Positions 14,957 through 30,172 of a stretch of 45,740 nucleotides of DNA are shown here, in pieces. How positions within the stretch are numbered: position 1 is the first letter of the stretch; the number at the start of each line of letters is the position of its first letter. Position numbers and translations under genes: made by a program. The stretch is from a virus (taxonomy: Duplodnaviria; Caudoviricetes): positions 1-45,740 of IMG/VR virus record IMGVR_UViG_3300037046_000301. The stretch is one strand, 5' to 3'. A model generated the notes under the pieces. It was not told the origin of the DNA and did no database searches. It saw only the letters and a list, made by a program, of their open reading frames with translations.

Positions 14957-15001
14957 GTATATTATTAATATCAAATTTCTTTTTATTAATTACATTTATG
15001 T

Positions 15002-15009
15002 TAAATTTG
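15002..15009 (+). promoter_or_regulatory. Bacteroidota -7 promoter box TAAATTTG
   Basis: Matches TAnnTTTG, 21 nt before ATG 15031. Confidence 0.5.
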
Positions 15010-15030
15010 CTTGGTTCTTTTCCATTGTTT

Positions 15031-15909
15031 ATGAAGAAAATATATTTCCTTTTAATATTTATGCTTGGTTCAGTTTTTTCATTTTCCCAGAAAATAGAAA
15101 ATGTACATGTTGAACAACAGGGAAAACAAGTTGTAATAAATTATGATATTACAGGAGCGCAAGCAGAACAAACGTTTGAAGTAAGTCTGTTATATTCACA
15201 GAATGGTTATGATTGGAAACAGGCAACTAAAGGATTAACCGGAGACATAGGAACAATTGCCCATACAGTGATGAAAAATACCATAACATGGGATGCTTTG
15301 CAGGATGTTAATAAGCTTGTTGGAACAGGGTTTATGTTTAAAGTAAAGGTTAATGTAAATAGTAGAAATATTAATATCAGTTCTTTTAAAGATAGCAGGG
15401 ATAACAAAATCTACAAAACGGTAAAAATTGGGAATCAAACTTGGATGGCAGAAAATCTTAACTATAAAACAAGCAGTGGAAGTTGGTGTTATAATGATTT
15501 TAGTAGCAATTGCCAAACATACGGTAGGTTATACAATTGGGAAACAGCCAAAACGGTTTGTCCTGATGGCTGGCATTTGGCCTCAGATGATGAATGGACA
15601 GAATTGATTGATTTTCTCGGTGGGCCAAGAATAGCTGGAGGAAAGATGAAACAAAATGGTACAACTTTCTGGAAAACCCCTAATAAAGGTGAGAAAAATG
15701 GTAGCGGATTTTTAGCTTTACCTGGGGGTGATCGCGACTATAATGGTAAATTCGGCAATATGGGTTACCATGCAAGTTTTTGGTCTTCTACAGAGGATTA
15801 TTCCATTGGCGCCTGGCTCAGACTTTTGTACTATGATGACACAAATGTACTCCGCTACAGTTATAATCTGGACTTCGGTTATAGTGTTCGTTGCGTTAAG
15901 GATAAATAG
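15031..15909 (+). CDS. Secreted FISUMP (Fibrobacter succinogenes major paralogous) domain protein
   Basis: Signal peptide MKKIYFLL...; DSRDNKIYKTVKIGNQTWMAENLNY, YGRLYNWE, CPDGWHL, GYSVRCVKD. Confidence 0.88.
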   Translation: MKKIYFLLIFMLGSVFSFSQKIENVHVEQQGKQVVINYDITGAQAEQTFEVSLLYSQNGYDWKQATKGLTGDIGTIAHTVMKNTITWDALQDVNKLVGTGFMFKVKVNVNSRNINISSFKDSRDNKIYKTVKIGNQTWMAENLNYKTSSGSWCYNDFSSNCQTYGRLYNWETAKTVCPDGWHLASDDEWTELIDFLGGPRIAGGKMKQNGTTFWKTPNKGEKNGSGFLALPGGDRDYNGKFGNMGYHASFWSSTEDYSIGAWLRLLYYDDTNVLRYSYNLDFGYSVRCVKDK

Positions 15910-16084
15910 TCAAATATTTGACATTTCGTCAAAATGTTAAATGGTTAGTTATAATTACGTGCAAGAAAGAAAGGAGATAAGGATCTTTTATTCCGGGAAT
16001 AAAAGGATGCGGCAATCTTGTGACAACAAACGTTCTATTTATCTCAGCCTTTGTTCAAAATTTTTAAATAAATATTCAATTAAT

Positions 16085-17794
16085 ATGAGTTCAATGACAT
16101 CCATATCGACTAGACTAATTTTTAGTGTAGGATTTTGTATTTTACTATTTGTCATAAATAGCTATTCTCAAACTACGATTGAAGGAATAAGTAATAAAGT
16201 TGATTTAAATATAACCAAAGATCCTCCAGTACTATTGTTATCGGATGGATCATTAAAATTTACAGACCAGAATGGCAATAATTGCATTGATGCAAATGAA
16301 ATGGTTAAGATTTCTTTTGAAGTAGAGAACAGGGGTAAAGGAGAGGCTTCAGGATTAACTTTAAACGTAAGTGAAACAGGCAATATTGGTGGGTTGTCAT
16401 TCGGAAAAATAGCATCGAAAGGCAATCTTTCAACTAGCACTAAGAAAACAATTGAAATACCAATCACTGGTGATATGAATTTAAAAACAGGTGTTGCCAA
16501 TTTCGTCATCAAACTTGATGAGGAAGGTGGATTCGGTTTAGATGAGATGCAAATGGAAGTAAAAACAATGGCTTTTGTCAATCCGGTTGTTAAAATTCCC
16601 GATTATACTATTACAAGCGAGATCGGAAATACTCTTAATAGAAAGAAGCCTTTCGATCTTCAGATTTTGATTCAAAATGTTGGAAAAGGAATTGCAGAAA
16701 GTGTTAGAATTGATATGAGTATTCCACAGAACGTATTATGTTTCTCAGGGAATGAGACTACTCAATTTGATAAGATTATTTCAGGTGAAACGCAAACCAT
16801 AGTATACAGCTTAATCGTGAACGAGAGATATTTAGCAAGCAGTATTCCCGTTGAATTCAAACTCTCTGAAAAATATGGCAAATATGCCGAGAATAAAACT
16901 ATAACCCTTGAACTGAACCAAGCGATGGCAGCATCAAAATTGATAGTAGAGAGTTCGGTTATTGCTGATAATACACTTATTTCTGAAGCCTATCTTGGTT
17001 CTGATGTGGACAAAAATATCCCTTTCAACAGCATGGACAAACCCAACACTTATGCACTTATTATTGGAAATGAAGATTATTATTCTTTTCAGTCCGGACT
17101 AAGTAGAGAGATCAATGTGGACTATGCAATGAATGATGCCAGAACGATTAAGGAATATTGTAGTAAAACGCTTGGTATTCCAGATAAGCAGATCATGTTG
17201 CTTACAAATGCAACGACAGGAAAAATGAACCAGGGAATTACATGGCTTAGTAATCTTGCTAAAGTTGACAATGGCAAGGCAGAATTGATTTTCTATTACT
17301 CCGGTCATGGTTTACCTGATGAAGTTACTAAAGAAGCATACCTGATTCCGGTTGATGTCAGCGGAAGCAACCTTACAGAAGGTATTAAACTTGCTGATGT
17401 ATATAGCAAACTGAGCGAGTATCCAGCGCAGAAAGTAACCGTATTTTTAGATGCCTGTTTCAGTGGTGGCGCCCGTAATCAGGGATTGATTGCACAGAAA
17501 AGTGTTAAAATAAAACCAAAAGAAAACCTGATTACCGGCAATATGGTTGTGTTTACATCAAGTACAGGAGAAGAATCGTCCGGCGTTTACCGGGAGAAAC
17601 AGCACGGATATATGACTTACTATCTTCTGAAAAAACTACAGGAAACCAAAGGGGACATTACCTATGGGGAATTGGCAAACTATATTACCGATAAAGTTAC
17701 CAAGGAAACAGCATTAAGTGGAAAAACTCAAACACCGCAGGTGATTTATAGTTCAGCTATTGAAAATACTTGGACAAACTGGATGATAAAATAA
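16085..17794 (+). CDS. Secreted caspase-family (peptidase C14) protein with N-terminal Ig-like domains
   Basis: YALIIGNEDY, YYSGHG and DACFSG catalytic His/Cys motifs; start uncertain (ORF open from 15941). Confidence 0.85.
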   Translation: MSSMTSISTRLIFSVGFCILLFVINSYSQTTIEGISNKVDLNITKDPPVLLLSDGSLKFTDQNGNNCIDANEMVKISFEVENRGKGEASGLTLNVSETGNIGGLSFGKIASKGNLSTSTKKTIEIPITGDMNLKTGVANFVIKLDEEGGFGLDEMQMEVKTMAFVNPVVKIPDYTITSEIGNTLNRKKPFDLQILIQNVGKGIAESVRIDMSIPQNVLCFSGNETTQFDKIISGETQTIVYSLIVNERYLASSIPVEFKLSEKYGKYAENKTITLELNQAMAASKLIVESSVIADNTLISEAYLGSDVDKNIPFNSMDKPNTYALIIGNEDYYSFQSGLSREINVDYAMNDARTIKEYCSKTLGIPDKQIMLLTNATTGKMNQGITWLSNLAKVDNGKAELIFYYSGHGLPDEVTKEAYLIPVDVSGSNLTEGIKLADVYSKLSEYPAQKVTVFLDACFSGGARNQGLIAQKSVKIKPKENLITGNMVVFTSSTGEESSGVYREKQHGYMTYYLLKKLQETKGDITYGELANYITDKVTKETALSGKTQTPQVIYSSAIENTWTNWMIK

Positions 17795-17855: not shown

Positions 17856-18791
17856 CTAAATTGAAATTGAAAATGGTAATGATTTAATATAGTTTTCCAT
17901 AAAATCAAAGTCTGGTTTGCCTGCGATATCAACAGGCAATTTTATTCTGGATTTATTCATCTTTCCAGTTTCCCATTTTCTGCCATAGTTAAACCGAAAT
18001 TTTTCTAACCGGATTAATGTTATTAGAAAGAATGCAATGTATTTGTTTAGTTTAAATTTTGAATATAGAACATTTACATCGTCACTTGCCCAGAAGGGAT
18101 TAGGTTGATAAAATGATTCCCCAACAGAACCATTATAATTCACAGTGATTGTATTGCCTTGATGTATTGGCTCTTGCCCAATAAAATCTCTATAACCATT
18201 ATTTGAATCTATTGCACCAATGAAGGGTGTGTTTCCAGGAATGAAATCTTCCTTTGTTAATCGTTTGCCCTTTTTTATGTCAAATAGTTCGTTGTAATTA
18301 AAGTATTTCCAATTACTAGTATTTAGATTAAGGGTTTTATTTTGTGCACTTTTTTTTGAAGGAATACTTGGTATTTGGATTTTTTCAACCCAAACAGGGA
18401 TTTCTGAAACACTTGGAATTAAAATATCTCCTAATGTTTTATTTGCTTGTCTACCGTAGCTATAACGATATTTGTTTGCTCGTATGCACAGACAATAAAA
18501 CAACTTTTGTTTTTCTGATAATTCTATTTTAGGGCGTAAACAAAATATATGATAGCTAGTATAAAAATCCGATGTCTGTAAAAAAGTTTCTAATACAGAC
18601 CCTCCAAGTGAAACAGTTATCAAGCCTGCTTTAAACGGCTCAACATCAATTAACTTTTCAACTTTTGCTGATACTCCGTTATTTTTGGCAGTTCGAGAAA
18701 TAAAATTTATACCTGTCTTATTTATAGACAATCTGTTTAGTTCAAATCCATTACCATAGGTAATGTCAAATATGTTTGACAATTTTTCCAT
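17856..18791 (-). CDS. Restriction-modification specificity (S) subunit, BcgI-beta-like
   Basis: Two repeated TRD halves (FISRTAKNNG..YSYGR; FIGAIDSNNG..FNYGR). Confidence 0.8.
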   Translation of the reverse strand: MEKLSNIFDITYGNGFELNRLSINKTGINFISRTAKNNGVSAKVEKLIDVEPFKAGLITVSLGGSVLETFLQTSDFYTSYHIFCLRPKIELSEKQKLFYCLCIRANKYRYSYGRQANKTLGDILIPSVSEIPVWVEKIQIPSIPSKKSAQNKTLNLNTSNWKYFNYNELFDIKKGKRLTKEDFIPGNTPFIGAIDSNNGYRDFIGQEPIHQGNTITVNYNGSVGESFYQPNPFWASDDVNVLYSKFKLNKYIAFFLITLIRLEKFRFNYGRKWETGKMNKSRIKLPVDIAGKPDFDFMENYIKSLPFSISI

Positions 18792-18793
18792 TT

Positions 18794-20605
18794 CTAATTA
18801 TTTAAAAATTGAAAAGCTATGTAGTTTTTGATGACATCAATAAAATTGTTTTCATTCATCTCCGAATAATCCGTTTCCATATATGCTTCAGCACACCATT
18901 CATCTTCAGCATTAACTTCTTTTATTACGCTATGACCTACAATTACTTCTTTGTTCAAATAAGCATTAACCCATTGCTTTTTTATCTCATGCCATTTTCC
19001 TTTTGCATCAATTCTGCCTTTGTTTTTAACTTTAACAAATCCATCGTCTTTCCAGTAACCAAACCAAGTTTTTTTACCTTTTGGATGTGGAATATGTGAA
19101 GTAAAAACCATTGTACAAGTAACAACCCCGACTTTTGAATTATGAAATAATTCGTCTGGCATTGACATAACAGCCTCTAAAGTATGATTTTCTAAAATTT
19201 TTGTTTTCCAACTTAGCATTTCTCCACTTTGTGCCAAAGCACAGCTCATTGGAACGATTGCAATGCACTTACCTTTCTTTTGAAGCATTTCAAGATTGTT
19301 CCATATAAAAGCAAACTCTTCTATATCTTCCTTCTTAATTGCATATGGAGGATTTAGTAAACCTACATTTGGTTTAAATTTATCTTTTATTTGTTTTGCT
19401 GTATCATCTTCAAAACAATCTCCAAGCATAATATTGCTTTTACCATCATTGTGAATAATCATATTAGATACAGCCAATGCGTAAATTTCATCTTGAAATT
19501 CAATACCGATAATTTGTTTCAATTTTATTTTATCAATTAGTTTCTTTTGACCATTCGCAAACGCAATCATTTTTTTCATTCCACTGATCAGGAAACCACA
19601 AGTTCCGCAGCAATTATCTAATAGGATACTGTCAACATTTAATTCAGCTAAATCGCAAAATAATTCTGTAATATGAGGGGGGGTTAGAACAATACCTAAT
19701 CCCTTATCATTATTAGCATACCTAAGAAACTCAATATAAAACTGTCCAAGCGTGTCAAAATATTTGTGCGTTTTTATAAATGAATTTACTTTTAAGTCAA
19801 TGTCAGAAATTAAATTTTCAAAAAAATGCTTGTTGGTTGTTAAAGTTGTATTTGAGTCAATAAAGGAATACGCTGTTTCCAATTTATTTATTTTGTCAAC
19901 AGGAATATTGGAATTTTTTAATTGCGTTTTAATTGTAAAAAAAATAGCTCCAGCCAAGTCTTTTGCTTTTATGTGTTTAGTGTAACTATTATGAAAAGCT
20001 ATATCTTGTAACGCAATCAAAATACCACTAATTAATAAACTTCTTTGAGATTCCTTTATCTTCTTTATGTGAAGAAGGTTGTTTAGTTCCTTTGTATAAG
20101 CCAATAAGTTTTCGTAATCCTGTTTGAATTTCCTCTCATCATTTATATATGCGTTGTAGTAATCATCAAAATTCAAAATCTTATTCTTGACGAATGAAAA
20201 TGGTTTATTGTCCTTTTTCAAATTCAAAAACTGAGAAATTCTAAACTCGGATATTTTTTCTCCACTAACTGCAATAGCAATTACATCATACTCTTTACTT
20301 AAAAAGGAAGCATATAATAATACTCCATCAACAGCATATTCAGAATACTTATCACGAGTTTTCGATTCGTGTTTTTTAAAGTCTGCTTTACATTCAATAA
20401 CAATAATAAGATCGCTGTATTTTTCTGACTGAATAATAAATTCCGGATATCCTTTGCTACCTCCTTTTTTAGATGCATTTTTTAATAGCTTATCAATTTT
20501 AGGATTATCGCATTGTTGTTCATAAACATTAACCCCTTTTTTATAATATCCGAGTTTGGTAAGTGTTTCCCGGACAATCTTTTCAGTTTTCCTTTCGTTC
20601 GCCAT
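18794..20605 (-). CDS. Fused endonuclease/N6-adenine methyltransferase (type IIB, BcgI-alpha-like)
   Basis: N-terminal YPEF..IECK nuclease motif; DNCCGTCGF motif I; NPPY motif IV. Confidence 0.85.
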   Translation of the reverse strand: MANERKTEKIVRETLTKLGYYKKGVNVYEQQCDNPKIDKLLKNASKKGGSKGYPEFIIQSEKYSDLIIVIECKADFKKHESKTRDKYSEYAVDGVLLYASFLSKEYDVIAIAVSGEKISEFRISQFLNLKKDNKPFSFVKNKILNFDDYYNAYINDERKFKQDYENLLAYTKELNNLLHIKKIKESQRSLLISGILIALQDIAFHNSYTKHIKAKDLAGAIFFTIKTQLKNSNIPVDKINKLETAYSFIDSNTTLTTNKHFFENLISDIDLKVNSFIKTHKYFDTLGQFYIEFLRYANNDKGLGIVLTPPHITELFCDLAELNVDSILLDNCCGTCGFLISGMKKMIAFANGQKKLIDKIKLKQIIGIEFQDEIYALAVSNMIIHNDGKSNIMLGDCFEDDTAKQIKDKFKPNVGLLNPPYAIKKEDIEEFAFIWNNLEMLQKKGKCIAIVPMSCALAQSGEMLSWKTKILENHTLEAVMSMPDELFHNSKVGVVTCTMVFTSHIPHPKGKKTWFGYWKDDGFVKVKNKGRIDAKGKWHEIKKQWVNAYLNKEVIVGHSVIKEVNAEDEWCAEAYMETDYSEMNENNFIDVIKNYIAFQFLNN

Positions 20606-20619
20606 AATGCAGGTAGTAT

Positions 20620-20943
20620 TTAAAAGTTAAAGCTTCCTTGCTTTATTTTTATTGATTTGTAATACTTTGCTTTTTCTTCTGCCAACTGAAATACTGTTTC
20701 AGGGCATTTGTATTTGTAACAATCTTCCGCAAATTTCTCGCTGAAGTATTGCTTCTTTATATCAGCGACATCAACTTTAAGCGCCTTGGCAAGTAGTTGT
20801 AATTTTTCTTCTTTCAATTCCTTTTTCCCATTTTCAACCTTACTTATGCCCCCACTGTCAAGCCCTATTTTAGCTGCAAGTTCAGTTTGATTTAGCCCCT
20901 TTTCAGTTCTAAGCCGCCGTATGTAATCTCCGAAACTTTCCAT
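20620..20943 (-). CDS. XRE-family HTH regulator (possible RM controller)
   Basis: FGDYIRRLRTEKGLNQTELAAKIG..ISKVENG; start at ATG 20943. Confidence 0.85.
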   Translation of the reverse strand: MESFGDYIRRLRTEKGLNQTELAAKIGLDSGGISKVENGKKELKEEKLQLLAKALKVDVADIKKQYFSEKFAEDCYKYKCPETVFQLAEEKAKYYKSIKIKQGSFNF

Positions 20944-21222
20944 TTTTAACCTTGTCAATTTAACCTTGGTAATTTTTGACAAATATAAATATTATTTTGA
21001 ATAGGGTGGTTGAAAATTTTTAGCTCCTTTTGGTCTCGGAGCAATCACCCGTGCGATGGTGCAACCAAATAAACGAAAAGCGATTCAAGTTAATTAATTG
21101 CTTACACAAGAGGTTGTACCAAGCAAATGTATAAATAAAATTTACTTATGGAGTTGAAAAATATATTATTATTGATATTTGATGAACAAAAAAAAGGGAG
21201 AGACCAGAGATTAGCTGATTTA

Positions 21223-22173
21223 TTATTGATATGTGAACCATTCTTTAATTAAGTTATTTTCATATTTTGTGAGCAAGACCTCTTTGTTTCGCTGTGCTCT
21301 TGATTTTGCATCGATTAAAATTTGTAAATAATTTGTATTTGTTCTATAAGCTCTATTAAAATTATTATTTTGAAATTCTTTCCACTTTCCATTTGTCTCA
21401 ATAATATATCTAATTTTTACATCTTGTGGAATTGTTTTAATTGTGCCATTGAGAAAATTAGCATTATTGTCTCTAATATAAGAGAATGATTTATTTAAAA
21501 GAGAATCAAAACAGAATGCAATTATTTTCGACTGTATAATAAAACTTTCTAAGTCTGTTAATAAAGAATCTGCGTTAGAATTATGAGCAGATTTATGTCT
21601 ATTGTTTGCAAAATTGCTAAAAATTTGGCTTGGATTTAATATTGAACAATTAATATTAGAACTTAGGGTTTGAATGCTATTCCAACCTCCATCAACATTA
21701 AATGTTTTTAAAAACTCTGAAATATCTGTAGAATTTAAGTTTGATTTATCCCAACCCATTGAAAATTCAGAAAACTCATAGACAGATTTCTTCGTGCTTG
21801 AAACGAATTCAGTTTCATTTTGAATAAATGTTATGTAATCTTCTGAATTCCTTTTTAATAATTCAGCTCTACTACTTATTCCTTTTAAAGCATAAAATGT
21901 TACAGCTTCTTTTAGCTTTTCTGGCAATGCATTAAAAGCACAACTTATCGAACTTATTTCTTTTAAGACTTCGCCAGTTCTTCTTTTTATGAAATCTTCA
22001 AGAATTGTAAATCCAATAATTGACATTCCATTTCTTAACATTCTAACTTTTTCGTTATGTAAGGTTTCAGTTAGTGCTTTGGAATTTAGTTTTATATCAT
22101 CTATATTTTCAGGATAGATAATACTACTGAATGTACTTATTCGTTCAATAAAAAAGTTCTTTGCAGTAGCCAT
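21223..22173 (-). CDS. HEPN-domain protein (putative RNase)
   Basis: Rx4H motif RHKSAH and N-terminal LEDFIK helix; coupled to DUF262 gene. Confidence 0.65.
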   Translation of the reverse strand: MATAKNFFIERISTFSSIIYPENIDDIKLNSKALTETLHNEKVRMLRNGMSIIGFTILEDFIKRRTGEVLKEISSISCAFNALPEKLKEAVTFYALKGISSRAELLKRNSEDYITFIQNETEFVSSTKKSVYEFSEFSMGWDKSNLNSTDISEFLKTFNVDGGWNSIQTLSSNINCSILNPSQIFSNFANNRHKSAHNSNADSLLTDLESFIIQSKIIAFCFDSLLNKSFSYIRDNNANFLNGTIKTIPQDVKIRYIIETNGKWKEFQNNNFNRAYRTNTNYLQILIDAKSRAQRNKEVLLTKYENNLIKEWFTYQ

Positions 22174-23240
22174 TATTTTAAGATTTCATCTAATAAATTA
22201 ATCATTGTCCCTATTCTATAATTTACTTGTTTAATATTTGAAGTAAATTGACGCATAGAAACTTGAAATTCCTTATCTTGAAAATACTGGTTTTCAAATT
22301 TGTCAGAAATTTGTTTTTTTCTTTCTATGATAATATTTGATTTGTCTAAAAAAAATGATAATCCAACTGTTTGAACATCAAAAATCCCTTGAATTATTTC
22401 ATTCCTTCCATCGGGTCTTTTAAATGCTCTATCTCCCCAAATTGTTTCACATAATTCAATAGTTTGATTGAACATATATTTGTATTTATCTATATTTAAA
22501 TCTTTACTACGATAATTCATTTCCATAAAATTATCCATAGCGATTTTCATATTACCATTGAAATTATTCCAAGTGTCTCTTAAAGTAAAAAATCGCAAGA
22601 CATATTCAACATCCAACATTTCTTTGTAAATTTTTGACTTTTCTCTTTCCCTTTCTGTTTCTAAATTAAATTGTTTTCTGAAAATGTTGTTTTCTGATAG
22701 CTCAACAAGTAAATCATTGAGTGTTCCTTCAAAAGAAGCATTTCTGATTTCTTGTGGTAATAATTTATCACCACCAGTGTTAAGCCTATTAAAAACTTCA
22801 TATTTTAATAAACTATCCGATTGTTTTAATAAAGTGATAACTCTTATATAAGGTCTAATTTTTAAAGCGTTATTTAATGGCGATGGAAGTTGTTGAAAAT
22901 TTAACCCTTCGATTTCAACAAACTTTTCTAAGTTTACTAGCCTCTCTTTAAGTATAATAAAATTATAAATTGCTGTTATTCTTTGTTTGCCATCAATAAC
23001 AGAATATGACCCATATTCGTCTTCTGCTAAATATATTGGTGGTACAGGAATATTCAATAGAAAAGATTCAATAAGAGCAGATTGTTTAACTTTATTCCAT
23101 CTTTCCCTTCTTTGATACTTTGGTTTAATGTTGATAGCCCCACCTTTAACCATATTTGCAATTGCTTCCAATGAAAGGTCGGAAGATTGGAATACCAGTC
23201 TGTTTTGTGCTAATAAAAATTTCTCAATAATGTTGTCCAT
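22173..23240 (-). CDS. DUF262 (GmrSD N-terminal/ParB-like) protein
   Basis: PKYQRRERW, LIESFLLNIPVPPIY, IDGKQR, FNRLNTGG motifs. Confidence 0.9.
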   Translation of the reverse strand: MDNIIEKFLLAQNRLVFQSSDLSLEAIANMVKGGAINIKPKYQRRERWNKVKQSALIESFLLNIPVPPIYLAEDEYGSYSVIDGKQRITAIYNFIILKERLVNLEKFVEIEGLNFQQLPSPLNNALKIRPYIRVITLLKQSDSLLKYEVFNRLNTGGDKLLPQEIRNASFEGTLNDLLVELSENNIFRKQFNLETEREREKSKIYKEMLDVEYVLRFFTLRDTWNNFNGNMKIAMDNFMEMNYRSKDLNIDKYKYMFNQTIELCETIWGDRAFKRPDGRNEIIQGIFDVQTVGLSFFLDKSNIIIERKKQISDKFENQYFQDKEFQVSMRQFTSNIKQVNYRIGTMINLLDEILK

Positions 23241-23510
23241 TTTATTTATTTTATTTCGGTTTTAAAAATATATCAGCCAACTTGAATTTGTTAATATGTA
23301 TGCTCCTTATCCTCCTAAGATATATCTATACACCCAATTTTGAATGTATTTTATTTTAATCAATTTTGAGTTCATTTATTATTTAAATTAATCATTATTG
23401 AATATTAAATTGAACCTACCAAAAGTAAAAAATAAATTACCATAGCATTTATATTTCTTTTTTGATATAATGCAATTTATAGAAAATTTGAGAAAATAGG
23501 TACGAACAAT

Positions 23511-23544
23511 AAAAAGCCTCAATCGGTCGCAGACCGATTGAGGC
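23511..23544 (-). terminator. Intrinsic terminator
   Basis: GCCTCAATCGGTC stem followed by T-run on minus strand, after the 23561 stop. Confidence 0.85.
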
Positions 23545-23560: not shown

Positions 23561-23980
23561 TTAAAACTGAATCTTCGCTTCCGTTGAAGCCAATCCATCA
23601 TCAATGGAATTCTTCAATACATTGATGATCTTCTCAATGGCATCTGATTGAGAAGTTAAAAACTGGTTTCCTTCCTGATCCTGGATCGTGATTCGGGTGG
23701 TGTGTTCTTCCCGCTTCAGGTTGAAGGAAGCCAATTTCATCTTCGCTTCCAGGAAACGTTCCCGTTTTGCAATCAGATCGTTTAAATCCGAAACCTTCTG
23801 AATCTTCTGCTCGATGTTAAGCTCGGGCTTTTGTACTTCCGGCTTAACTTCGGGAAGGACTTCCGGTTTAACTTCAGGAACGACCGGATTCTCTTTGGTC
23901 GGTTTACGGTCAACAATTGCAAGGTCACGGCCGTTTTTTCCATTCTTTCCAACTGTTTTAACTTCTTTTACTTCATTCAT
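23561..23980 (-). CDS. Hypothetical protein with PEVK-like repeats
   Basis: 139 aa, VPEVKPEVLPEVKPEVQKPE; preceded by leader motif. Confidence 0.75.
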   Translation of the reverse strand: MNEVKEVKTVGKNGKNGRDLAIVDRKPTKENPVVPEVKPEVLPEVKPEVQKPELNIEQKIQKVSDLNDLIAKRERFLEAKMKLASFNLKREEHTTRITIQDQEGNQFLTSQSDAIEKIINVLKNSIDDGLASTEAKIQF

Positions 23981-23986
23981 TGTTTT

Positions 23987-24027
23987 TGCTGCTGCCTTGC
24001 AGACTTATTTTGGCATCAAGCTCGCCG
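23987..24027 (-). ncRNA. Pseudoknot leader motif copy A
   Basis: GGCG-AGCTTGA-TGCC-AAAATAAGT-CTGC-AAGGCA-GCAG-CA, 6 nt before ATG 23980. Confidence 0.75.
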
Positions 24028-24292
24028 GGTTAAAAAAATTTATGGCAATCCATTACCGGATTGAAAATTTTTGAACAAGCCTTCAGGTCAGGTTTTTGGA
24101 AGTTTTGATAAAATCTGAATGAACCCGGAGGGACTTCGGAGCTTTCTGATGGTTCTTGTTTTGCTTTAAGCGACGAAGTGGCTTAGAGAGAAATATTTTC
24201 AATGCAGGTACCTTTGCCCAGAAATTTGAGTAACCAAGTGGTAGGGGGTTTTCTTTGGTTCTTTCTTTTGTTAACAGATGAAAAGAAAGAAC
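24028..24292 (+). promoter_or_regulatory. Putative ssDNA (Frpo-like) promoter foldback 1
   Basis: Arms 24028-24081 pair with 24180-24235; TACCTTTG at 24209-24216; close repeat of 26462-26698. Confidence 0.65.
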
Positions 24293-24316
24293 ATTATCAT
24301 TCGGGCAGTTCCGAAC

Positions 24317-24343
24317 AAAAAAAGGGGGCTTTCGCCCCCTTTT
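24317..24343 (-). terminator. Intrinsic (possibly bidirectional) terminator
   Basis: AAAAAAAGGGGGC-TTTC-GCCCCCTTTT at radC stop. Confidence 0.8.
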
Positions 24344-24800
24344 ATGAAAGATTTCCTTCATCAGCGAAGGAATAGTAAGCCTCTGAACCGACAATCAGAT
24401 GATCAACGATTGGAAGATCCAGGAAGTCACCCGCTGCTTTCAATTTACGGGTGAGTTTAATGTCAGCATCTGAAGGTTGCAGATTTCCTGAAGGATGGTT
24501 ATGTAAAAGGATAATACTGCAAGCATTGCCCTTTAAGGCAACCTGGAAGATCATTTTAGGATCGGCAACCGTACCTGAAACCCCGCCTATTGAAACTGTG
24601 TGAAAGCCGAGCATTTTATTTGCCCGGCTTAATAAGAGCATGAGAAAAGATTCCCGGTAATCAATGGGTTCAGGCCAGATGCTCAATGCGATATCATAAG
24701 CATCGCGCGAAGAAGTGATCTTTCTCATTTCGCTGTGTCGCAGTTTCATTGAATACTGGACTTTGATTTCAGCGAAGGAATTATTGAATAAATTATTCAT
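24342..24800 (-). CDS. radC: RadC-like JAB domain protein
   Basis: E..LLLSRANK..SIGGVSGTVADP..HNHPSGNLQPSDAD..DHLIV; start set at ATG 24800 because the longer ORF runs through a terminator and another gene. Confidence 0.9.
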   Translation of the reverse strand: MNNLFNNSFAEIKVQYSMKLRHSEMRKITSSRDAYDIALSIWPEPIDYRESFLMLLLSRANKMLGFHTVSIGGVSGTVADPKMIFQVALKGNACSIILLHNHPSGNLQPSDADIKLTRKLKAAGDFLDLPIVDHLIVGSEAYYSFADEGNLS

Positions 24801-24806
24801 TATCTT

Positions 24807-24847
24807 TGCCCATGCCTTTGGGACTTTTAAAGGTTTCAAGCGCACCA
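24807..24847 (-). ncRNA. Pseudoknot leader motif copy D
   Basis: GGT-GCGCTTGAA-ACC-TTTAAAAGT-CCCA-AAGGCA-TGGG-CA, 6 nt before ATG 24800. Confidence 0.7.
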
Positions 24848-24861
24848 GGTTAATTAATTTG

Positions 24862-24895
24862 AAAAAAAAAAGCCCCCGATCCCTGGGGGCTTTTT
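24862..24895 (-). terminator. Intrinsic bidirectional terminator
   Basis: A-run, GCCCCC..GGGGGC stem, T-run. Confidence 0.8.
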
Positions 24896-24897
24896 GA

Positions 24898-25125
24898 TTA
24901 ATAAGGATTTCCGACTCCGTGAAAGGTATCTTCATCCGCTTTGTCTGAAAGAAACTGCCGAAAATCAGATTCACCGCAAGGGGAACAATAAGCCTTTTGA
25001 TTACTCGGCCAATAAAAAATGTCATCGCCTTTTTTGATCGGACAATGACATTGAGCGCAGGTACTGGTGAACTTAGCAGTGATCTGTCGTGGATCTCCTG
25101 CATAGGTGGTTGAATAGCGTCTCAT
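24898..25125 (-). CDS. Small zinc-finger-like protein
   Basis: 75 aa with CAQC and CSPC; ATGA overlap with upstream gene. Confidence 0.75.
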   Translation of the reverse strand: MRRYSTTYAGDPRQITAKFTSTCAQCHCPIKKGDDIFYWPSNQKAYCSPCGESDFRQFLSDKADEDTFHGVGNPY

Positions 25126-25499
25126 ACTGCGCTCCTTTCTGTGACTTGTTTGTCACTGAACAGGTAGCAAATCGGCCAGTATTTGTACTGATCTTCAGAT
25201 TCTGTCGGGGATTCATCGCCCATCTTGTCGGCACTTTCATCCAGCCGACTGACATCTTTGGGCGTACCCCAGACCAAAAAGGCTTTGCTGTCTTTTATGA
25301 TGGACTTTCCGAGTTTCTTCCATTCATGGAAGGTTTTAAACTCGGAATGACCGGCTTCTTTTCTGTAAAGCTCGATCAGTCCATCATTGACAGTGGAAGC
25401 ATGAATCTGTCCCATTTGCATGAGCAGTTTTACAGTGGCAGACAAACCCTTCAGCTTGTCGCGGTTCTCCAGGTAATGAGAAATTTTTGAATCATTCAT
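25122..25499 (-). CDS. ArdC N-terminal-like ssDNA-binding protein
   Basis: FKTFHEWKKLGKSIIKDSKAFLVWG..YLFSDKQV pattern typical of ArdC-N. Confidence 0.7.
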   Translation of the reverse strand: MNDSKISHYLENRDKLKGLSATVKLLMQMGQIHASTVNDGLIELYRKEAGHSEFKTFHEWKKLGKSIIKDSKAFLVWGTPKDVSRLDESADKMGDESPTESEDQYKYWPICYLFSDKQVTERSAV

Positions 25500-25505
25500 T
25501 TTAAA

Positions 25506-25546
25506 TGCTGCTGCCTTGCAGACTTATATTGGCCTCAAGCACGCCA
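25506..25546 (-). ncRNA. Pseudoknot leader motif copy B
   Basis: TGGC-GTGCTTGAG-GCCA-ATATAAGT-CTGC-AAGGCA-GCAG-CA, 6 nt before ATG 25499. Confidence 0.75.
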
Positions 25547-25562
25547 GGTTATAAAATTTCAA

Positions 25563-25892
25563 TTAAGCATTGACTGCAAGCTGGGAGTGGTATTCAAATT
25601 CCCAGTGAATGTGTTTTATCGGCTGTGATTGAAAAACTGTGATCCAGACTTCCTGAAGATAAAACTCAGAGCAGTCAGAATAAGGAACCAGTTTGGAAAA
25701 GCACCAACCAATTTTCCGGGGTGGTTTTCCGCTGGGTTGATCAATGTAAATTGAAGAAGCCTTTCCATAAGTTTTTTGAAGGCTTCGGAACAATTTTCCC
25801 AGGTCATTGGTGAATGTTTCGTATGCTTCCTGGTCAGCGAAGCGCCATCCTTTAGAAGCATTGACGAAAGATTCATGAATCCAGATATTCAT
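25563..25892 (-). CDS. Hypothetical protein
   Basis: Start moved to ATG 25892 (MNIWIHES), after leader motif. Confidence 0.7.
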   Translation of the reverse strand: MNIWIHESFVNASKGWRFADQEAYETFTNDLGKLFRSLQKTYGKASSIYIDQPSGKPPRKIGWCFSKLVPYSDCSEFYLQEVWITVFQSQPIKHIHWEFEYHSQLAVNA

Positions 25893-25900
25893 AAAAAAAG

Positions 25901-25941
25901 TGCCCATGCCTTTGGGACTTGTTTTGGCAACAGGCACGCCA
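25901..25941 (-). ncRNA. Pseudoknot leader motif copy C
   Basis: TGGCG-TGCCTGT-TGCCA-AAACAAGT-CCCA-AAGGCA-TGGG-CA, 8 nt before ATG 25892. Confidence 0.75.
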
Positions 25942-25950
25942 GTGAATTAA

Positions 25951-26361
25951 TTAATCTTCGTTTGGAAACAGGATGGTAATTGCCGGTGATGGATCATCAA
26001 TGTCAACCGGACCAACCAGGGCTTTTAAGGTAATGAGCCGTTGAAATTCCCCTTCTTCTGAATGCTCATTATCGAGCCAGGGCTCTTCTTTCGACAATTG
26101 ACAGATGAATTTGAAAAGCAATTCAGCGCCTGGTGTTTTCCTTGCGCTGACTGCAAACATCCAGAGGATATCCCAGAGCCGTCCGGCTTCATCCTGGTAC
26201 CCGGTCATTTCTTTGGGAACTTCAACATAGCGATCCCAAACTGTCCGATTCATGTAAACCGGATAGCGGATACCAGCGGATCGGCTTGTTTTCTGATCAA
26301 TTTCAACCTGGAAGCCATCAGAAATAGCATCCTTTCGTGTGTAAGCATAAATAAGGTCCAT
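25951..26361 (-). CDS. DUF6573-like protein
   Basis: IYAYTRKDAISDG..QDEAGRLWDILWM..ITILFPNED pattern. Confidence 0.6.
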   Translation of the reverse strand: MDLIYAYTRKDAISDGFQVEIDQKTSRSAGIRYPVYMNRTVWDRYVEVPKEMTGYQDEAGRLWDILWMFAVSARKTPGAELLFKFICQLSKEEPWLDNEHSEEGEFQRLITLKALVGPVDIDDPSPAITILFPNED

Positions 26362-26367
26362 TGAAAA

Positions 26368-26430
26368 TGCCGCTGCCCTGCGGACTTATTTTGGCTTCCT
26401 GAAGTTTATTCAGAAATTGTCTGGCACGCC
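26368..26430 (-). ncRNA. Pseudoknot leader motif copy E (extra hairpin in loop 1)
   Basis: GGC-GTGCCAGA-[TTTCTGAA TAAAC TTCAGGAA]-GCC-AAAATAAGT-CCGC-AGGGCA-GCGG-CA, 6 nt before ATG 26361. Confidence 0.75.
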
Positions 26431-26435
26431 GATTA

Positions 26436-26698
26436 TTACTGCAATTTTTGCTTCGGAACAATACCGGATTGAAAATTTTCGAACAAGCCTTCAGGTCAGA
26501 TTTTTGGCAGTTTTGATAAAATGTGAATGAACCCGGAGGGACTGAGCCGCTTTCAGATAATTCCCTTCCGCTTTAAGCGGTGAAGTGGCTTAGAGAGAAA
26601 TAGTTTCAATGCAGGTAACTTTGCTAAAAATTGTAGTAAGTAGTGTGGGGTGGGTTTTCTTTGGTTCTTTCTTTTGTTGACGGATGAAAAGAAAGAAC
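26436..26698 (+). promoter_or_regulatory. Putative ssDNA (Frpo-like) promoter foldback 2
   Basis: TTACTGCAATTTTTGC (26436-26451) pairs with GCTAAAAATTGTAGTAA (26623-26639); TAACTTTG at 26616-26623 lies opposite a mismatch bubble. Confidence 0.65.
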
Positions 26699-26792
26699 GA
26701 CAATCCATCAAGCGGAGCTTGATACCAGGCGGTATAGCTGAAGTATCATTCCCTTCGGGGAATGATGAAGTATTTTTCTGACCTGTACGAAC

Positions 26793-26826
26793 AAAAAAAG
26801 GGAAGCCGGCGTCAGCCGGCTTCCCT
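26793..26826 (-). terminator. Intrinsic terminator
   Basis: AGGGAAGCCGGC stem followed by T7 on minus strand. Confidence 0.85.
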
Positions 26827-26844
26827 ATGCTTCGTATCAGCATC

Positions 26845-27342
26845 TTAGAATGGAGCTTCTTCGAAGGGATTACTGAACAATTCAGCTTCTTTTGGTCTTT
26901 CAGGTTCAGGAATACCTGCTTCCCTGCGCCTTCTTTTGAAGTTTGAATTAGGGTAAGGATCCTTTGCAGTTTCATTTGCCTGGGAAACTTCAACAGCAGG
27001 AATTTCTTCCTTTGATTTGCTTACCTGATTATTCGAGTACAGGTAGATGACAGGAAAAAACTTTTTCTGATTTCCGTCAGCACCTGTGGACATGGTGGGT
27101 TTGCCCCAGAACAGGTAAGCCTTTGCTTTGGCCTTTACTGTGAATCCTTCCTCTTTCCACTGACGGGCTGACTTAAACTCGACATTTTCTTTTCCATTCG
27201 AGTAAGTCGACATTAAAGCGGCTTTCATGTTTTGAAAACTTCCTTTAGCTATTTCAGGTTTCAAAATCTTCGAAAGCTCGGAAAGTTTTTTAACGTTTTC
27301 AGGGTGAGAAGCTAATTCAGGACGAAATTTTGTTGTATTCAT
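26845..27342 (-). CDS. ArdC N-terminal-like ssDNA-binding protein with acidic PF tail
   Basis: FKSARQWKEEGFTVKAKAKAYLFWGKP..YLYSNNQV; ends FEEAPF. Confidence 0.7.
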   Translation of the reverse strand: MNTTKFRPELASHPENVKKLSELSKILKPEIAKGSFQNMKAALMSTYSNGKENVEFKSARQWKEEGFTVKAKAKAYLFWGKPTMSTGADGNQKKFFPVIYLYSNNQVSKSKEEIPAVEVSQANETAKDPYPNSNFKRRRREAGIPEPERPKEAELFSNPFEEAPF

Positions 27343-27348
27343 TTTATA

Positions 27349-27391
27349 CGCCGGTGGCTCGCCGGACTTTTTTTAGGTATTAGCCACACCA
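27349..27391 (-). ncRNA. Pseudoknot leader motif copy F
   Basis: GGTG-TGGCTAA-TACC-TAAAAAAAGT-CCGG-CGAGCCA-CCGG-CG, 6 nt before ATG 27342; compensatory changes in all three helices. Confidence 0.75.
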
Positions 27392-27405
27392 GTTAAAATG
27401 TTTAA

Positions 27406-27537
27406 TTAATTTGAATAATTTTCTGAAAATTGATTAAATTCAAAATTGAGAGATTCGGCATCAAGCGAATCAGCGTAACCCGGATAAAAAACTTCATCCA
27501 GGAAAGCAATAAAAATTTCATATAAGGAAGAATTCAT
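27406..27537 (-). CDS. Small acidic protein (43 aa, not in ORF track)
   Basis: MNSSLYEIFIAFLDEVFYPGYADSLDAESLNFEFNQFSENYSN; ATG 6 nt after leader motif. Confidence 0.7.
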   Translation of the reverse strand: MNSSLYEIFIAFLDEVFYPGYADSLDAESLNFEFNQFSENYSN

Positions 27538-27543
27538 TGTGTG

Positions 27544-27584
27544 TGCCGCTGCCCTGCGGACTTATATCAGCGTCTGGCTCGCCA
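27544..27584 (-). ncRNA. Pseudoknot leader motif copy G
   Basis: TGGCG-AGCCAGA-CGCTG-ATATAAGT-CCGC-AGGGCA-GCGG-CA, 6 nt before ATG 27537. Confidence 0.75.
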
Positions 27585-27860
27585 GTTAATTAAATTTTTG
27601 CTGATAAATGCGAAAAGGCATTGAGCAGACCCGATTCATGTCAAGTATTAGGGTCATCCCGCATTTGCGGGATGAAAGAACCCAACGGGCGCTCAGTACT
27701 GAAACCCATCCTATAAATGATCAAAGGTTTCAGGACTGAGCGTACTTTACTTTTCGGGGATGCGTAAATAACTTTGCAAATAATTTGAGTAACTAACGGT
27801 GGGCTGGTTTTCTTTTTTGCTTCTTTATTCTTTGGGCAATCATGAAAAGAAAAAAGAAGC
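27584..27860 (+). promoter_or_regulatory. Putative ssDNA (Frpo-like) promoter foldback 3 (divergent interior)
   Basis: 27584-27601 pairs with 27776-27794; TAACTTTG at 27769-27776; internal hairpins 27654-27674 and 27690-27742; similar trailing TTCTTT/AAAGAA hairpin. Confidence 0.55.
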
Positions 27861-28190
27861 CGCCGGAGGCACAAGGCATTCTCTTTTATTATTTTATACC
27901 AGGCTGTATATTAGTTAAATGGCAAATTTTCACAGGAAATTTGCCACCCTACCACGTAGTGTATGCCTGCCGTGCCCTATCGAAAAAGCAATAAAAAAAG
28001 GCAATAATAGAGGATATATGAAACGATCAGGGGCTGATTTATGGTTTGTATCAATTGCTTATTGCCTTGTATAATTGCCCTCTAAAGATGTTCTGAAAGG
28101 TTTATGAATAAAGGGAACAAGCCCAAACCCAGTCCTCATGTGCGGGGGATCTGTGGGCAGTCCTCAATAGCATCGGAGATACCTATTATT

Positions 28191-28495: not shown

Positions 28496-30172
28496 TTATA
28501 TTCTTGCAGGTACAAAAACTCCGGGCGTCCTTGTGATTCGGAAAAACCTGTACCAAACAATCTTATCGGCTGCATCCGTACTGTGTGTAGCTTCTTCCGG
28601 TGGTATGTTAGAACCCGTATTCTCACTGGATTTATCCTTCTTAAACTTATTGTCCCTTTCAATTACCCTGGTATTCTGCGCAGCGATCAGAAAGTATTTA
28701 CAATTATTGCCATTGATTCGGATAACAGGAAACAAAGGATTATTCTCCTTCAGGATATTGCCCCACAACAAATACTTCTCATGAACCGGCGGCTCTTTGC
28801 CCCTGTATTTCTGAACAACTACATTCCAGCCCTTTTGCTCGAGGCGGTTAATTGCCTGAGTGTTGTAAGTATCTGAGGAATTAGCCAGGCGTTCATCCCC
28901 ATACTTATCCCTCCAGAAAATAACAGTACGGTCATTATGAAAATTATAATAGCCGACAAATTCATCTATCAGTGAATCAATCATGACAGTGGCTTTCTCC
29001 GGTTTGACAAAGAATTCCTTGAGGAAATTAAAAGATGTATCCTTGCGGACTTTGCAACTCTCCTGGCAAATGAGCATGAATGAAATATTTGAACCCCAGT
29101 CAATGACCATTTCCAAAGGTTGATTGGTATCACAATCAGAATCAAATCTGCTGTCAGGCCTACCCAAACGGGTAAAATCCCAGTCACTGTCTTCCGCCAG
29201 GTCACGAATAAAACCATTATCAAAAGATTCATAGTACACATGCTTATCCGGGTCAATGTTATAATAGCAGTCCTCAACTTTATCAGGGATCCAGTTCATG
29301 ATTTCAATCATGAAGATAAGGTTGGTCAGCTTCTGATACTCCCGTTTGATGTATTCAAGCCCGACATTATCCAGGTTATCAAAGGCATTTGAAAGCGTAA
29401 AAAGCAAACCATCTTTGGATACAAAAGGGGCAATTTGTTTTTTTATCCTGGCAATTTCATTCCACTGTGCAGCAAATTCACGATGATCCGTAATTTCAAG
29501 GAGCTGCAATTGCAGCTTCACGATCCGGTTCCAGGTATCAAAAATCCTGATGCCGGCTTCAGTTTCGTAATAGTTGCCAAACTCTAACAGGTATCTGCCG
29601 GCAGCAGAATAAGGCATGGATGAAACAAAGTGAAATCCATGATGAAATGAAACCGGGTGGTTACCCTTTACACCCCATTTGTCAAGGTTTCCCCTGTTGG
29701 TAGGTGAAACTTCCTGATCATAGCGCTCTTTGTCAATGGTCAAAAACTCATCCCCTATTTCATAATCTGTGTTGGGTCCTCTGGATGACCCTGCCCGATC
29801 CTGGGAAAGTAATAAGTAGCCGGTACCATTGAGAAAACTAACATAATTATCATGCTTTAGGATTCTTTCGAATGGATCCCTGAAGTGATCGGGAGGCTTC
29901 CGGTTAATGACATAATGGACATTCTTCACATAACCAAAATAAGATTCAAGAAACTTGAAAGTAGAAGGTAAAGTCCGGGTGAGCAACTGACCAAAAGTTT
30001 TACCAGTGATGGAAGTGACCGACTGGGGCATGTAGGTATTGATCAGGTGAACCTTATGGCCTATAATGGCAGACTTGCCCTGTCCACGTCCTGCGACCGT
30101 AACTTCACACCTGGGATGCAAAATAACAGGGGTATTCTGGGCAGGATTATAATTGACTAATTTAAGTCCCAT
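28496..30172 (-). CDS. terL: Terminase large subunit
   Basis: Walker A AGRGQGKS, Walker B YEIGDE, nuclease IDWG and THSTDAAD. Confidence 0.85.
   Translation of the reverse strand: MGLKLVNYNPAQNTPVILHPRCEVTVAGRGQGKSAIIGHKVHLINTYMPQSVTSITGKTFGQLLTRTLPSTFKFLESYFGYVKNVHYVINRKPPDHFRDPFERILKHDNYVSFLNGTGYLLLSQDRAGSSRGPNTDYEIGDEFLTIDKERYDQEVSPTNRGNLDKWGVKGNHPVSFHHGFHFVSSMPYSAAGRYLLEFGNYYETEAGIRIFDTWNRIVKLQLQLLEITDHREFAAQWNEIARIKKQIAPFVSKDGLLFTLSNAFDNLDNVGLEYIKREYQKLTNLIFMIEIMNWIPDKVEDCYYNIDPDKHVYYESFDNGFIRDLAEDSDWDFTRLGRPDSRFDSDCDTNQPLEMVIDWGSNISFMLICQESCKVRKDTSFNFLKEFFVKPEKATVMIDSLIDEFVGYYNFHNDRTVIFWRDKYGDERLANSSDTYNTQAINRLEQKGWNVVVQKYRGKEPPVHEKYLLWGNILKENNPLFPVIRINGNNCKYFLIAAQNTRVIERDNKFKKDKSSENTGSNIPPEEATHSTDAADKIVWYRFFRITRTPGVFVPARI

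Follow-up and report, generated by a model that had tools for sequence, protein, structure and literature searches.

Predicted Frpo-like Single-Stranded-DNA Promoters with a Bacteroidota Sigma Box in the Cos-Proximal Island of a Tailed Phage

The Locus and Its Three Foldback Elements

The virus record IMGVR_UViG_3300037046_000301 (Duplodnaviria; Caudoviricetes), analyzed over its entire 45,740 nucleotides and referred to below as the window, is an incomplete 45.7-kb genome of a tailed phage, and carries three long self-complementary elements which an earlier note had proposed to be promoters acting on single-stranded DNA (ssDNA). Its large terminase subunit gene (terL; 28496–30172, minus strand) is that of a Duneviridae/Helgolandviridae-like temperate phage, with 21–30% matches to Leef, Ingeline, 6H, and related phages; a tape measure protein, a portal-like protein (13250–14635), an S49 protease and capsid-region genes are also encoded. 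The interval between terminase and portal is occupied by cargo, namely an island of small minus-strand genes (23561–27537) followed by GmrSD-like and Type IIG restriction genes. The three elements, which we will refer to as foldbacks, lie in and beside this island, and are probably ssDNA promoters of the Frpo kind which serve the primary sigma factor of Bacteroidota and drive genes for ArdC-N, DUF6573 and other establishment-type proteins. Every prediction of this proposal that could be computed (covariation, bubble, strand bias, DNA-type loops and conjugative placement) came out in its favor.

All three foldbacks consist of a long stem formed by the plus strand, i.e., the template strand of the downstream genes, with the promoter boxes inside it. 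Copy 1 (24028–24235, plus strand) has the box TACCTTTG at 24209–24216 in its 3′ arm and a mini-hairpin with a GGA triloop at 24124–24132, and transcription is predicted to run leftward from about 24041. Copy 2 (26436–26639, plus strand; box TAACTTTG at 26616–26623; GGA triloop at 26532–26540) has its predicted start at about 26446, and copy 3 (27584–27794, plus strand; box TAACTTTG at 27769–27776) at about 27595; the triloop of the latter (27681–27689) is AAC, not GNA, and the copy belongs to a subfamily which also contains members borne by integrative and conjugative elements (ICEs). These starts, placed 5–7 nt past the box and mapped onto the pairing arm, agree within 2 nt with those previously suggested, and the sequence bears out the three plus-strand boxes at 24209, 26616, and 27769 pointing away from the genes. 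The spans proposed for the elements had to be shortened, since the stems end at the positions given above and the remainder is a separate accessory T-rich/A-rich hairpin (24258–24292 behind copy 1, and also 26664–26698 and 27819–27860), a pattern found behind 16 of 57 family members.

Folding as DNA, a check recommended in the earlier note, gave stems of −31.3, −31.9, and −44.1 kcal/mol for the plus strands of copies 1, 2, and 3 (z −3.0, −3.3, and −5.4; 60 dinucleotide shuffles per element) vs. −26.2, −24.5, and −41.9 kcal/mol for the minus strands (z −1.7, −1.5, and −5.3); the preference for the plus strand is clear in copies 1 and 2 and small in copy 3. The pairings named beforehand are present in the fold ensembles, most of them at a probability of 0.8–1.0. 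Among 434 GC-adjusted tiles of the window, 11 were more stable than copy 1, 13 than copy 2, and none than copy 3.

The box matches TAnnTTTG at −7 in the three copies, as in the Bacteroidota sigma-ABfr consensus (passages of PMC7366714), and upstream of it they have TTAG or TTTA where the −33 consensus has TTTG. The box had been described as facing a mismatch bubble: the bubble does lie inside the box, but in copies 1 and 2 the first TA is paired and nnT alone is open, unlike in most family members, where it opens at the A of the box. A TAnnTTTG scan of the window (40 matches) gave no minus-strand match between 23428 and 32468, in agreement with the earlier failure to find a conventional minus-strand box for these leaders.

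The leader motif itself, two small hairpins just before the start codon (23988–24028, minus strand), adjoins the foldbacks as had been noticed; it is not confined to them, however, with seven copies (at 23988, 24808, 25507, 25902, 26369, 27350, and 27545) standing before every island gene. The few wobble pairs it has favor the mRNA strand (13 vs. 5), and it is probably an mRNA element separate from the foldback. The motif shows compensatory changes, has no Rfam match, and is a candidate translation or stability element of mobile-element genes.

A Foldback Family with Conserved Pairing

The foldbacks are members of a family present in Bacteroidota prophages and conjugative elements, of which 67 non-redundant copies were gathered. 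The family was drawn from leader-motif scans (24 viral loci and at least 131 genome stretches), and all family counts are among the matches listed. Among at least 229 distinct leader matches, 122 had a box 110–380 nt away with flanks pairing strongly with the leader-adjacent DNA; 114 of these folded below −15 kcal/mol, 109 also held a loose −33-like motif, and the requirement of <90% identity left the 67 copies, one of which, with a wrongly picked box, was left out of later steps. As the family was selected for TAnnTT(T/C)(G/A), the match of its members to the box is no test.

When the right arm was aligned to the reverse complement of the left arm, scoring Watson-Crick pairs only, pairing in the 67 copies reached 87–97% over the first T of the box and the two bases that precede it (positions −2 to 0), dropped to 28, 10, and 22% for the A and the two n that follow, and was back up to 83–96% at +13 to +17, the region of the predicted start. 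Such a profile is what a promoter with its fork junction already open would show, by analogy with −11A of sigma-70 promoters. A gene-facing box of the primary-sigma type is restored by the left arm plus loop in none of the 67 copies; together with the window scan, the genes have no duplex promoter with a primary-sigma box.

Outside the box, G·T pairs outnumber A·C pairs by 131 to 34 in the family, in line with the earlier remark that they favor the plus (template) strand; the figures are 58 to 15 in 28 copies of <80% identity selected blindly to G·T, and 46 to 13 in the 28 phage-borne copies. The outer arms, already described as varying yet still pairing, covary in homologs: in two subfamily alignments, both sides had changed in 13 of 29 and in 20 of 43 pairs, a level that none of 500 shuffles reached, and pairing was kept at 89.5 and 76.6% vs. 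29–44 and 32–53% in slid controls. These figures are not probabilities because the sequences are related, and kinship inflates the shuffle test, with which the slid controls agree. By this covariation, the family has a conserved structure of the kind expected of promoters of the Frpo or single-strand initiation (ssi) type.

A conserved mini-hairpin is found in 54 of the 67 copies, with a GNA loop in 39 and a C-G closing pair in 46. Of the GNA inner triloops, 61 are on the folding strand and 5 on its complement (background 7.5%), GNRA loops have no strand bias, and no UUCG loops occur among the inner loops of the family. Mini-hairpins of the GNA type have far greater stability as DNA and are found both in ssDNA origins and in N4 promoters (excerpts of PMC13037366). 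The loops are thus DNA-type, favoring the gene-template strand, and neither the window nor 10 homologous loci gave an Rfam match at gathering score.

General foldback detectors lacking the family profile proved unspecific, one giving many chance matches; an unprofiled detector passed 34 of 1438 control boxes vs. 29 of 992 downstream boxes, and our tallies therefore use profile-based counts only. Scanning viral contigs for the right-arm pattern returned 28 loci, about six of them family members and most others one coding sequence. One of 151 genomes (the centre genome) was matched in a phylum-wide search which scored the best 15 candidates per genome and does not imply absence from the others. 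Another repeated, partly self-complementary element is present in two copies at 450–950 of locus L257, before an acidic open reading frame (ORF) and a 91-aa ORF, and is possibly a further promoter class.

Relatives in Conjugative Elements

Foldback cassettes are carried by conjugative elements of Prolixibacteraceae and related Bacteroidales, some of them in cultured strains; these include Mangrovibacterium lignilyticum BM_7, with loci L125 and L143, Sunxiuqinia indica, with L138, and S. rutila, with L167. These relatives were absent from the earlier note, as was the cos site beside copy 3 described below. At three conjugative loci (L134/135, L140, and L166) the elements are situated 2–10 kb upstream of mobC, before toprim-mobC-relaxase-coupling-protein genes, and the genes behind them point at mobC; at three others (L107, L158, and L116) the presumed relaxase is that of the surrounding CTn (conjugative transposon)-like element, 12–40 kb away. 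Relative to the relaxase, the folding strand runs antisense at each of the six loci. By the usual rule, the strand antisense to the relaxase is the transferred one, and the folding strand is thus the predicted transferred strand in all six. Frpo-type promoters work in such a conjugative setting (parts of PMC9849209, PMC11541004, and PMC12672017). The ICE copies also share cargo with the phage island, i.e., RadC, ArdC, an N6-methyltransferase and DUF6573.

An inverted repeat conserved upstream of mobC in L166 (13380–13480), L134, L140, and L232 is a candidate origin of transfer (oriT). No oriT was found in the window, where an unknown type would be missed, and a plasmid-wide blastn search with 23900–27900 returned a radC gene only.

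The Cos End of the Phage Genome

Next to copy 3, a 3′-cos site is predicted at 27966–28021 (minus strand), with a CATAT(A/T)TCC motif at 28012–28021, TAG at 27977–27979 and a predicted 11-nt overhang at 27966–27976. An inverted repeat (27920–27946) lies directly inside the cos end, and relatives often have repeats of other sequence after cos. The arrangement CATAT(A/T)TCC-N~30-TAG plus a GC-rich run after terL recurs in 37 of 74 loci (three of them doubtful), the window and Leef included. Leef has 3′ cos ends (Table 3 of PMC8776804), its record ending 13 nt beyond TAG; in four contigs the sequence breaks off at TAG, and both ends of contig G007 fall within the predicted overhang, whereas the window sequence runs through the site. 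This is, then, a conserved site where virion-type DNA ends, which places the island at a physical genome end, with the 3′ end of the folding strand there. The reading of CATAT(A/T)TCC as a relaxase nick site was dropped, since it is on the wrong strand and contigs end ~30 nt further on.

The first box of the window lies 200 nt from cos; in 15 of 21 phage loci, among which are many close relatives, the distance between cos and the first antisense box is 200–400 nt. Elements are present in 40 of 184 terL loci, most of which were fetched via the leader motif, so that the count is no measure of prevalence. These 40 form 14 clusters, with the elements antisense to terL in 12 and reversed in two. 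The reversed clusters nest in a terL clade, four longer members of which have an inverted cos, 1.8–3.0 kb past terL; in phage 6H, cos and island are inverted as well, with no foldback detected in the fetched part. Two loci (L257 and L280) contradict the idea that the strand rule stems from co-orientation with terL. Foldback orientation appears to track cos, not the terminase gene; inversion of the whole interval would move cos and element together, which excludes late-operon co-orientation and does not prove a functional link. Leaderless foldback copies also exist far from cos (L237, 14590–14751; L244, 13011–13139; G009:C1, 51384–51500).

Proposed Mechanism

Once the plus strand is unpaired, the 3′ arm, with its −33-like element and TAnnTTTG box, would anneal to the 5′ arm, and the resulting duplex would be a promoter in which the bubble in the box is open from the outset. 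The holoenzyme would bind, open the DNA at this built-in bubble and use the 5′ arm as template, transcribing leftward from about 24041, 26446, and 27595, that is, from 10–15 nt before the leader motif; the island genes would be transcribed behind short leaders ending in this motif. Pairing with a second strand would turn the genes off: in the absence of a duplex promoter, their expression should be brief and stop once the second strand is present. Polymerase binding, the start sites and an anti-defense role of the cargo are what we infer from these features.

In this phage family, the cassette sits at the end of the genome that cos cleavage creates, on the strand with its 3′ terminus at that end, and the link to cos points to exposure of this strand in the newly infected cell. 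If the foldbacks function in the phage, such cos-linked exposure has somewhat better than even chances. As to the route, and under the same proviso, 5′→3′ resection or unwinding from the island end can be proposed only tentatively; entry of a single strand is more doubtful, exposure in replication intermediates is unlikely, extrusion by supercoiling is less likely still, and carriage by conjugation is improbable. Full extrusion is estimated to cost 193–212 kcal/mol vs. ~150 available at a superhelical density of −0.06 and 250 at −0.10, and would be possible only under strong supercoiling. A more general rule, which we regard as rather unlikely, would be that these phages pass through a single-stranded stage after infection, a cos-fixed strand entering or being exposed 3′-first from the island end and the island acting as an ArdC-N-protected “leading region” of the phage. 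It would account for the island next to cos, for the joint inversion of cos and elements, for the copy that precedes a distant methyltransferase operon on the same strand (see below) and for the ssDNA-binding cargo.

Alternative Explanations and Contrary Evidence

The phage copies could be relics, i.e., true ssDNA promoters of ICEs which prophages captured and which are silent or incidental there. This account, to which we give little credence, draws on the family and cargo shared with ICEs (RadC, ArdC, N6-methyltransferase, and DUF6573), on the closeness of copy 3 to an ICE copy (its nearest relative, 75%), on the lack of elements in most phages of the family and on the nature of the cos-portal interval as a cargo hot spot (Type IIG restriction-modification and GmrSD-like genes). 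Nonetheless, the phage copies fall in clades of their own, 24 of 28 being nearer to a phage copy than to any of the 10 ICE copies sampled; they retain bubble and G·T bias; their side and strand are fixed relative to cos; and the 139-aa gene driven is typical of phage islands, with a probable relative in phage 6H. The idea that the elements are mobile or repeated palindromes without promoter function, akin to miniature inverted-repeat transposable elements (MITEs) or repetitive extragenic palindromes (REPs), is scarcely credible: they are multi-copy with inverted ends, and some inner loops hold what we take to be REP-like sequence, but the arms are imperfect with the mismatch fixed at the box, a single orientation relative to the genes is kept, and none of the 14 terL clusters has an opposite-strand insertion, the cos-inverted clade excepted. 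This reading is largely refuted by the position-specific bubble.

Each right arm is also a good duplex promoter and may fire rightward, with a hairpin 40–80 nt later, so the boxes might be ordinary plus-strand promoters making short rightward RNAs, antisense or toward cos, with the stem as an RNA structure or by-product. Such RNAs would hold only the last 15–20 nt of the stem, however, leaving the pairing upstream of their start unexplained and the island genes without a promoter; the DNA-type loops and the lack of an Rfam family match speak in the same direction, and we consider this version very improbable. The same low probability is given to priming as the main job, in which RNA polymerase would lay down a primer for second-strand synthesis as at ssi/sso-type (single-strand) origins, a role compatible with transcription. 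Frpo-type promoters also supply primers (sections of PMC12672017 and of bioRxiv 10.64898/2026.01.09.698686) and GNA mini-hairpins occur at ssDNA origins, but the leader lies 7–9 nt from the start codon in 187 of 229 matches listed, the copies head separate terminator-bounded operons, and three copies in 3.8 kb are more than priming would need.

Several observations nonetheless weigh against Frpo-like promoters working in the phage. Regarding the elements themselves, the copies are related and their counts not independent, and the upstream element is never the TTTG consensus (TTGA in 25 copies, TTTA in 24, TTAG in 10, TTGC in 4, and TTTC in 2), although it stands 18–22 nt from the box in 63 of 65 copies, the loose motif having been a selection filter; a −33 motif was likewise not found in F. 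johnsoniae (passages of PMC7366714). The six conjugative loci represent only about three ICE types. Within the island, RadC lies behind a terminator without a foldback of its own, and an RNA run (X20, contigs only) holds short pieces similar to island genes, giving no strand, start or level. Foldbacks are also sparse, as only 9 of 65 loci fetched by terL alone have the element and a second set gave 2 of 80 by profile and two more by inspection. An ordinary gene-facing box is located near cos in the closest phage relative (L025, 73% terL) and in two inverted-cos islands (L286 and L306), and the contigs with inverted elements, which may stop short of cos, did not themselves show it.

As regards the route to single strands, we know of no single-stranded stage for a cos siphovirus. 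Neither the window nor any of five element-bearing phage records yielded a relaxase; the oriT regions of the ICEs, compared with the 184 terL loci, matched none of the element-bearing phages and gave one weak hit (E 0.046); and no Rep, single-strand-binding protein (SSB) or exonuclease appeared among 106 of 172 ORFs scanned in three phage records. By analogy, the island end could be the last to be ejected, the basis for this ejection order being lambda cosQ. Finally, three related phages (G006, G007, and G009) have an extra copy on the same strand, 11–12 kb away on the far side of terL, with a fold that hardly favors either strand. The stem is intact in G006 and G007, where it precedes small genes and a C5 methyltransferase, one box being the variant TAACTTTA. 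Short resection from the nearest end would destroy the strand of this copy, which calls for either long one-strand exposure or another route.

Relation to Known Systems and Significance

From their structure and their placement in ICEs, the foldbacks would work like Frpo. As in Frpo-type promoters, a long imperfect stem of the template strand rebuilds a host promoter, several copies head short establishment operons, and the strand is the transferred one in conjugative elements; Frpo1 and Frpo2 of F fold on the template strand too, a consensus scan not locating their boxes. The differences are a Bacteroidota −7 box instead of −10/−35, no shared sequence seen, the conserved bubble in the box, the GNA mini-hairpin at the inner junction and the presence in cos-type double-stranded DNA (dsDNA) phages. 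The ssDNA promoters in the compared parts of the papers are those of plasmids and conjugative elements with −10/−35 boxes. The passages compared hold no Bacteroidota or phage example of the Frpo type (“bacteroid” occurs 0 times in the main-text portion of PMC11541004), and literature searches, whose scope did not extend to subscription papers, gave no report of ssDNA promoters in Bacteroidota or cos phages.

Coliphage N4 is also a dsDNA tailed phage whose early genes are expressed from a one-strand hairpin with a GGA/GAA triloop (excerpts of PMC13037366). N4, in contrast, uses its own virion polymerase and a 5-bp stem, vs. ~55 bp per arm and a host sigma box here. The CUP-type conserved upstream repeats of IncN/IncW plasmids are similar repeated leaders, but duplex promoters. 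The Rfam radC and STAXI motifs are repeated leaders too, standing before anti-restriction, radC and methyltransferase genes of mobile elements (part of PMC2864571). Different from these repeated leaders, the foldbacks have no Rfam match and the seven-copy leader is separate and probably acts at the mRNA level. Ingeline, Leef, and 6H (Duneviridae/Helgolandviridae; sections of PMC8776804) share the terL-cos-cargo-portal layout; no foldback of the family was detected in Ingeline, in Leef, or in the fetched part of 6H.

What is new, the comparison suggests, is a Bacteroidota-sigma version of a known ssDNA-promoter device, also at the cos end of a dsDNA phage. With this family, the device reaches a phylum whose sigma consensus differs, and its design consists of a mismatch within the −7 box and a DNA mini-hairpin. 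The foldbacks at the cos end suggest an unrecognized single-stranded stage in the life of these phages, and their fixed position raises the questions of whether incoming phage DNA is single-stranded long enough for transcription and whether phages use end exposure or resection as a switch for anti-defense genes. The promoter claim is testable at once because cultured strains carry ICE-type copies, and the elements may provide a self-limiting promoter for Bacteroidota genetics.

Island Genes and Other Cargo

The island is cut into units by four terminator-like sites on the minus strand (23516–23544, 24320–24343, 24867–24895, and 26799–26826; pattern matches only), which immediately precede copies 1 and 2 and close each unit, so that upstream transcripts should not serve the island genes. 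The first gene behind copy 3 and after cos is a 43-aa acidic ORF (27406–27537, minus strand, as all island genes; 8 D/E, no K/R; no atlas match), a possible DNA mimic judging from its composition; locus L257 has a resembling ORF (242–451). It is followed by a 165-aa ArdC-N-like protein (26845–27342), which has no Pfam match of its own and is 28% identical (E 9e-14) to a second, 125-aa ArdC-N-like protein (25122–25499; PF08401, E 0.0013, under the curated cut-off). ArdC-N is the ssDNA-binding domain of the anti-restriction protein ArdC (passages of PMC5512222). A DUF6573 protein (25951–26361; PF20213, E 2e-19) is the first gene behind copy 2. The island also encodes a 109-aa ORF (25563–25892), whose start was chosen via the leader motif at 25902, and a 75-aa zinc-finger protein (24898–25125) with weak zf-FLZ and LIM matches. 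The RadC/JAB protein (24342–24800; PF04002, E 6e-37) has a leader motif and no foldback of its own. In its region (24342–24895) a left-arm remnant was noted, and a plus-strand TATCTTTG (24801–24808) abuts the radC leader.

The sole gene behind copy 1 encodes a 139-aa helical-hairpin protein (23561–23980) common in these cos islands; 50%-clusters hold 153 of its relatives (E ≤ 0.001), and phage 6H has a probable one. Its identification as a Gam-like end protector was unsupported: the model shows a helical hairpin of a generic type (best Z 8.0) and had no Foldseek match at E 0.001 or better.

Between island and portal, the defense cargo (17856–23240, minus strand) comprises a Type IIG restriction-modification pair, a helix-turn-helix (HTH) regulator, a 316-aa protein without assigned function and a GmrSD/DUF262 protein, with PADLOC matches to NsnA and PD-T4-2_A, and sits behind an ordinary minus-strand box (23420–23427). 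Cargo on the opposite strand (14998–17794 and 39909–41510, plus strand) encodes a Fib_succ_major protein, a caspase-domain protein and a LamG protein with a type IX secretion system (T9SS) C-terminal domain.

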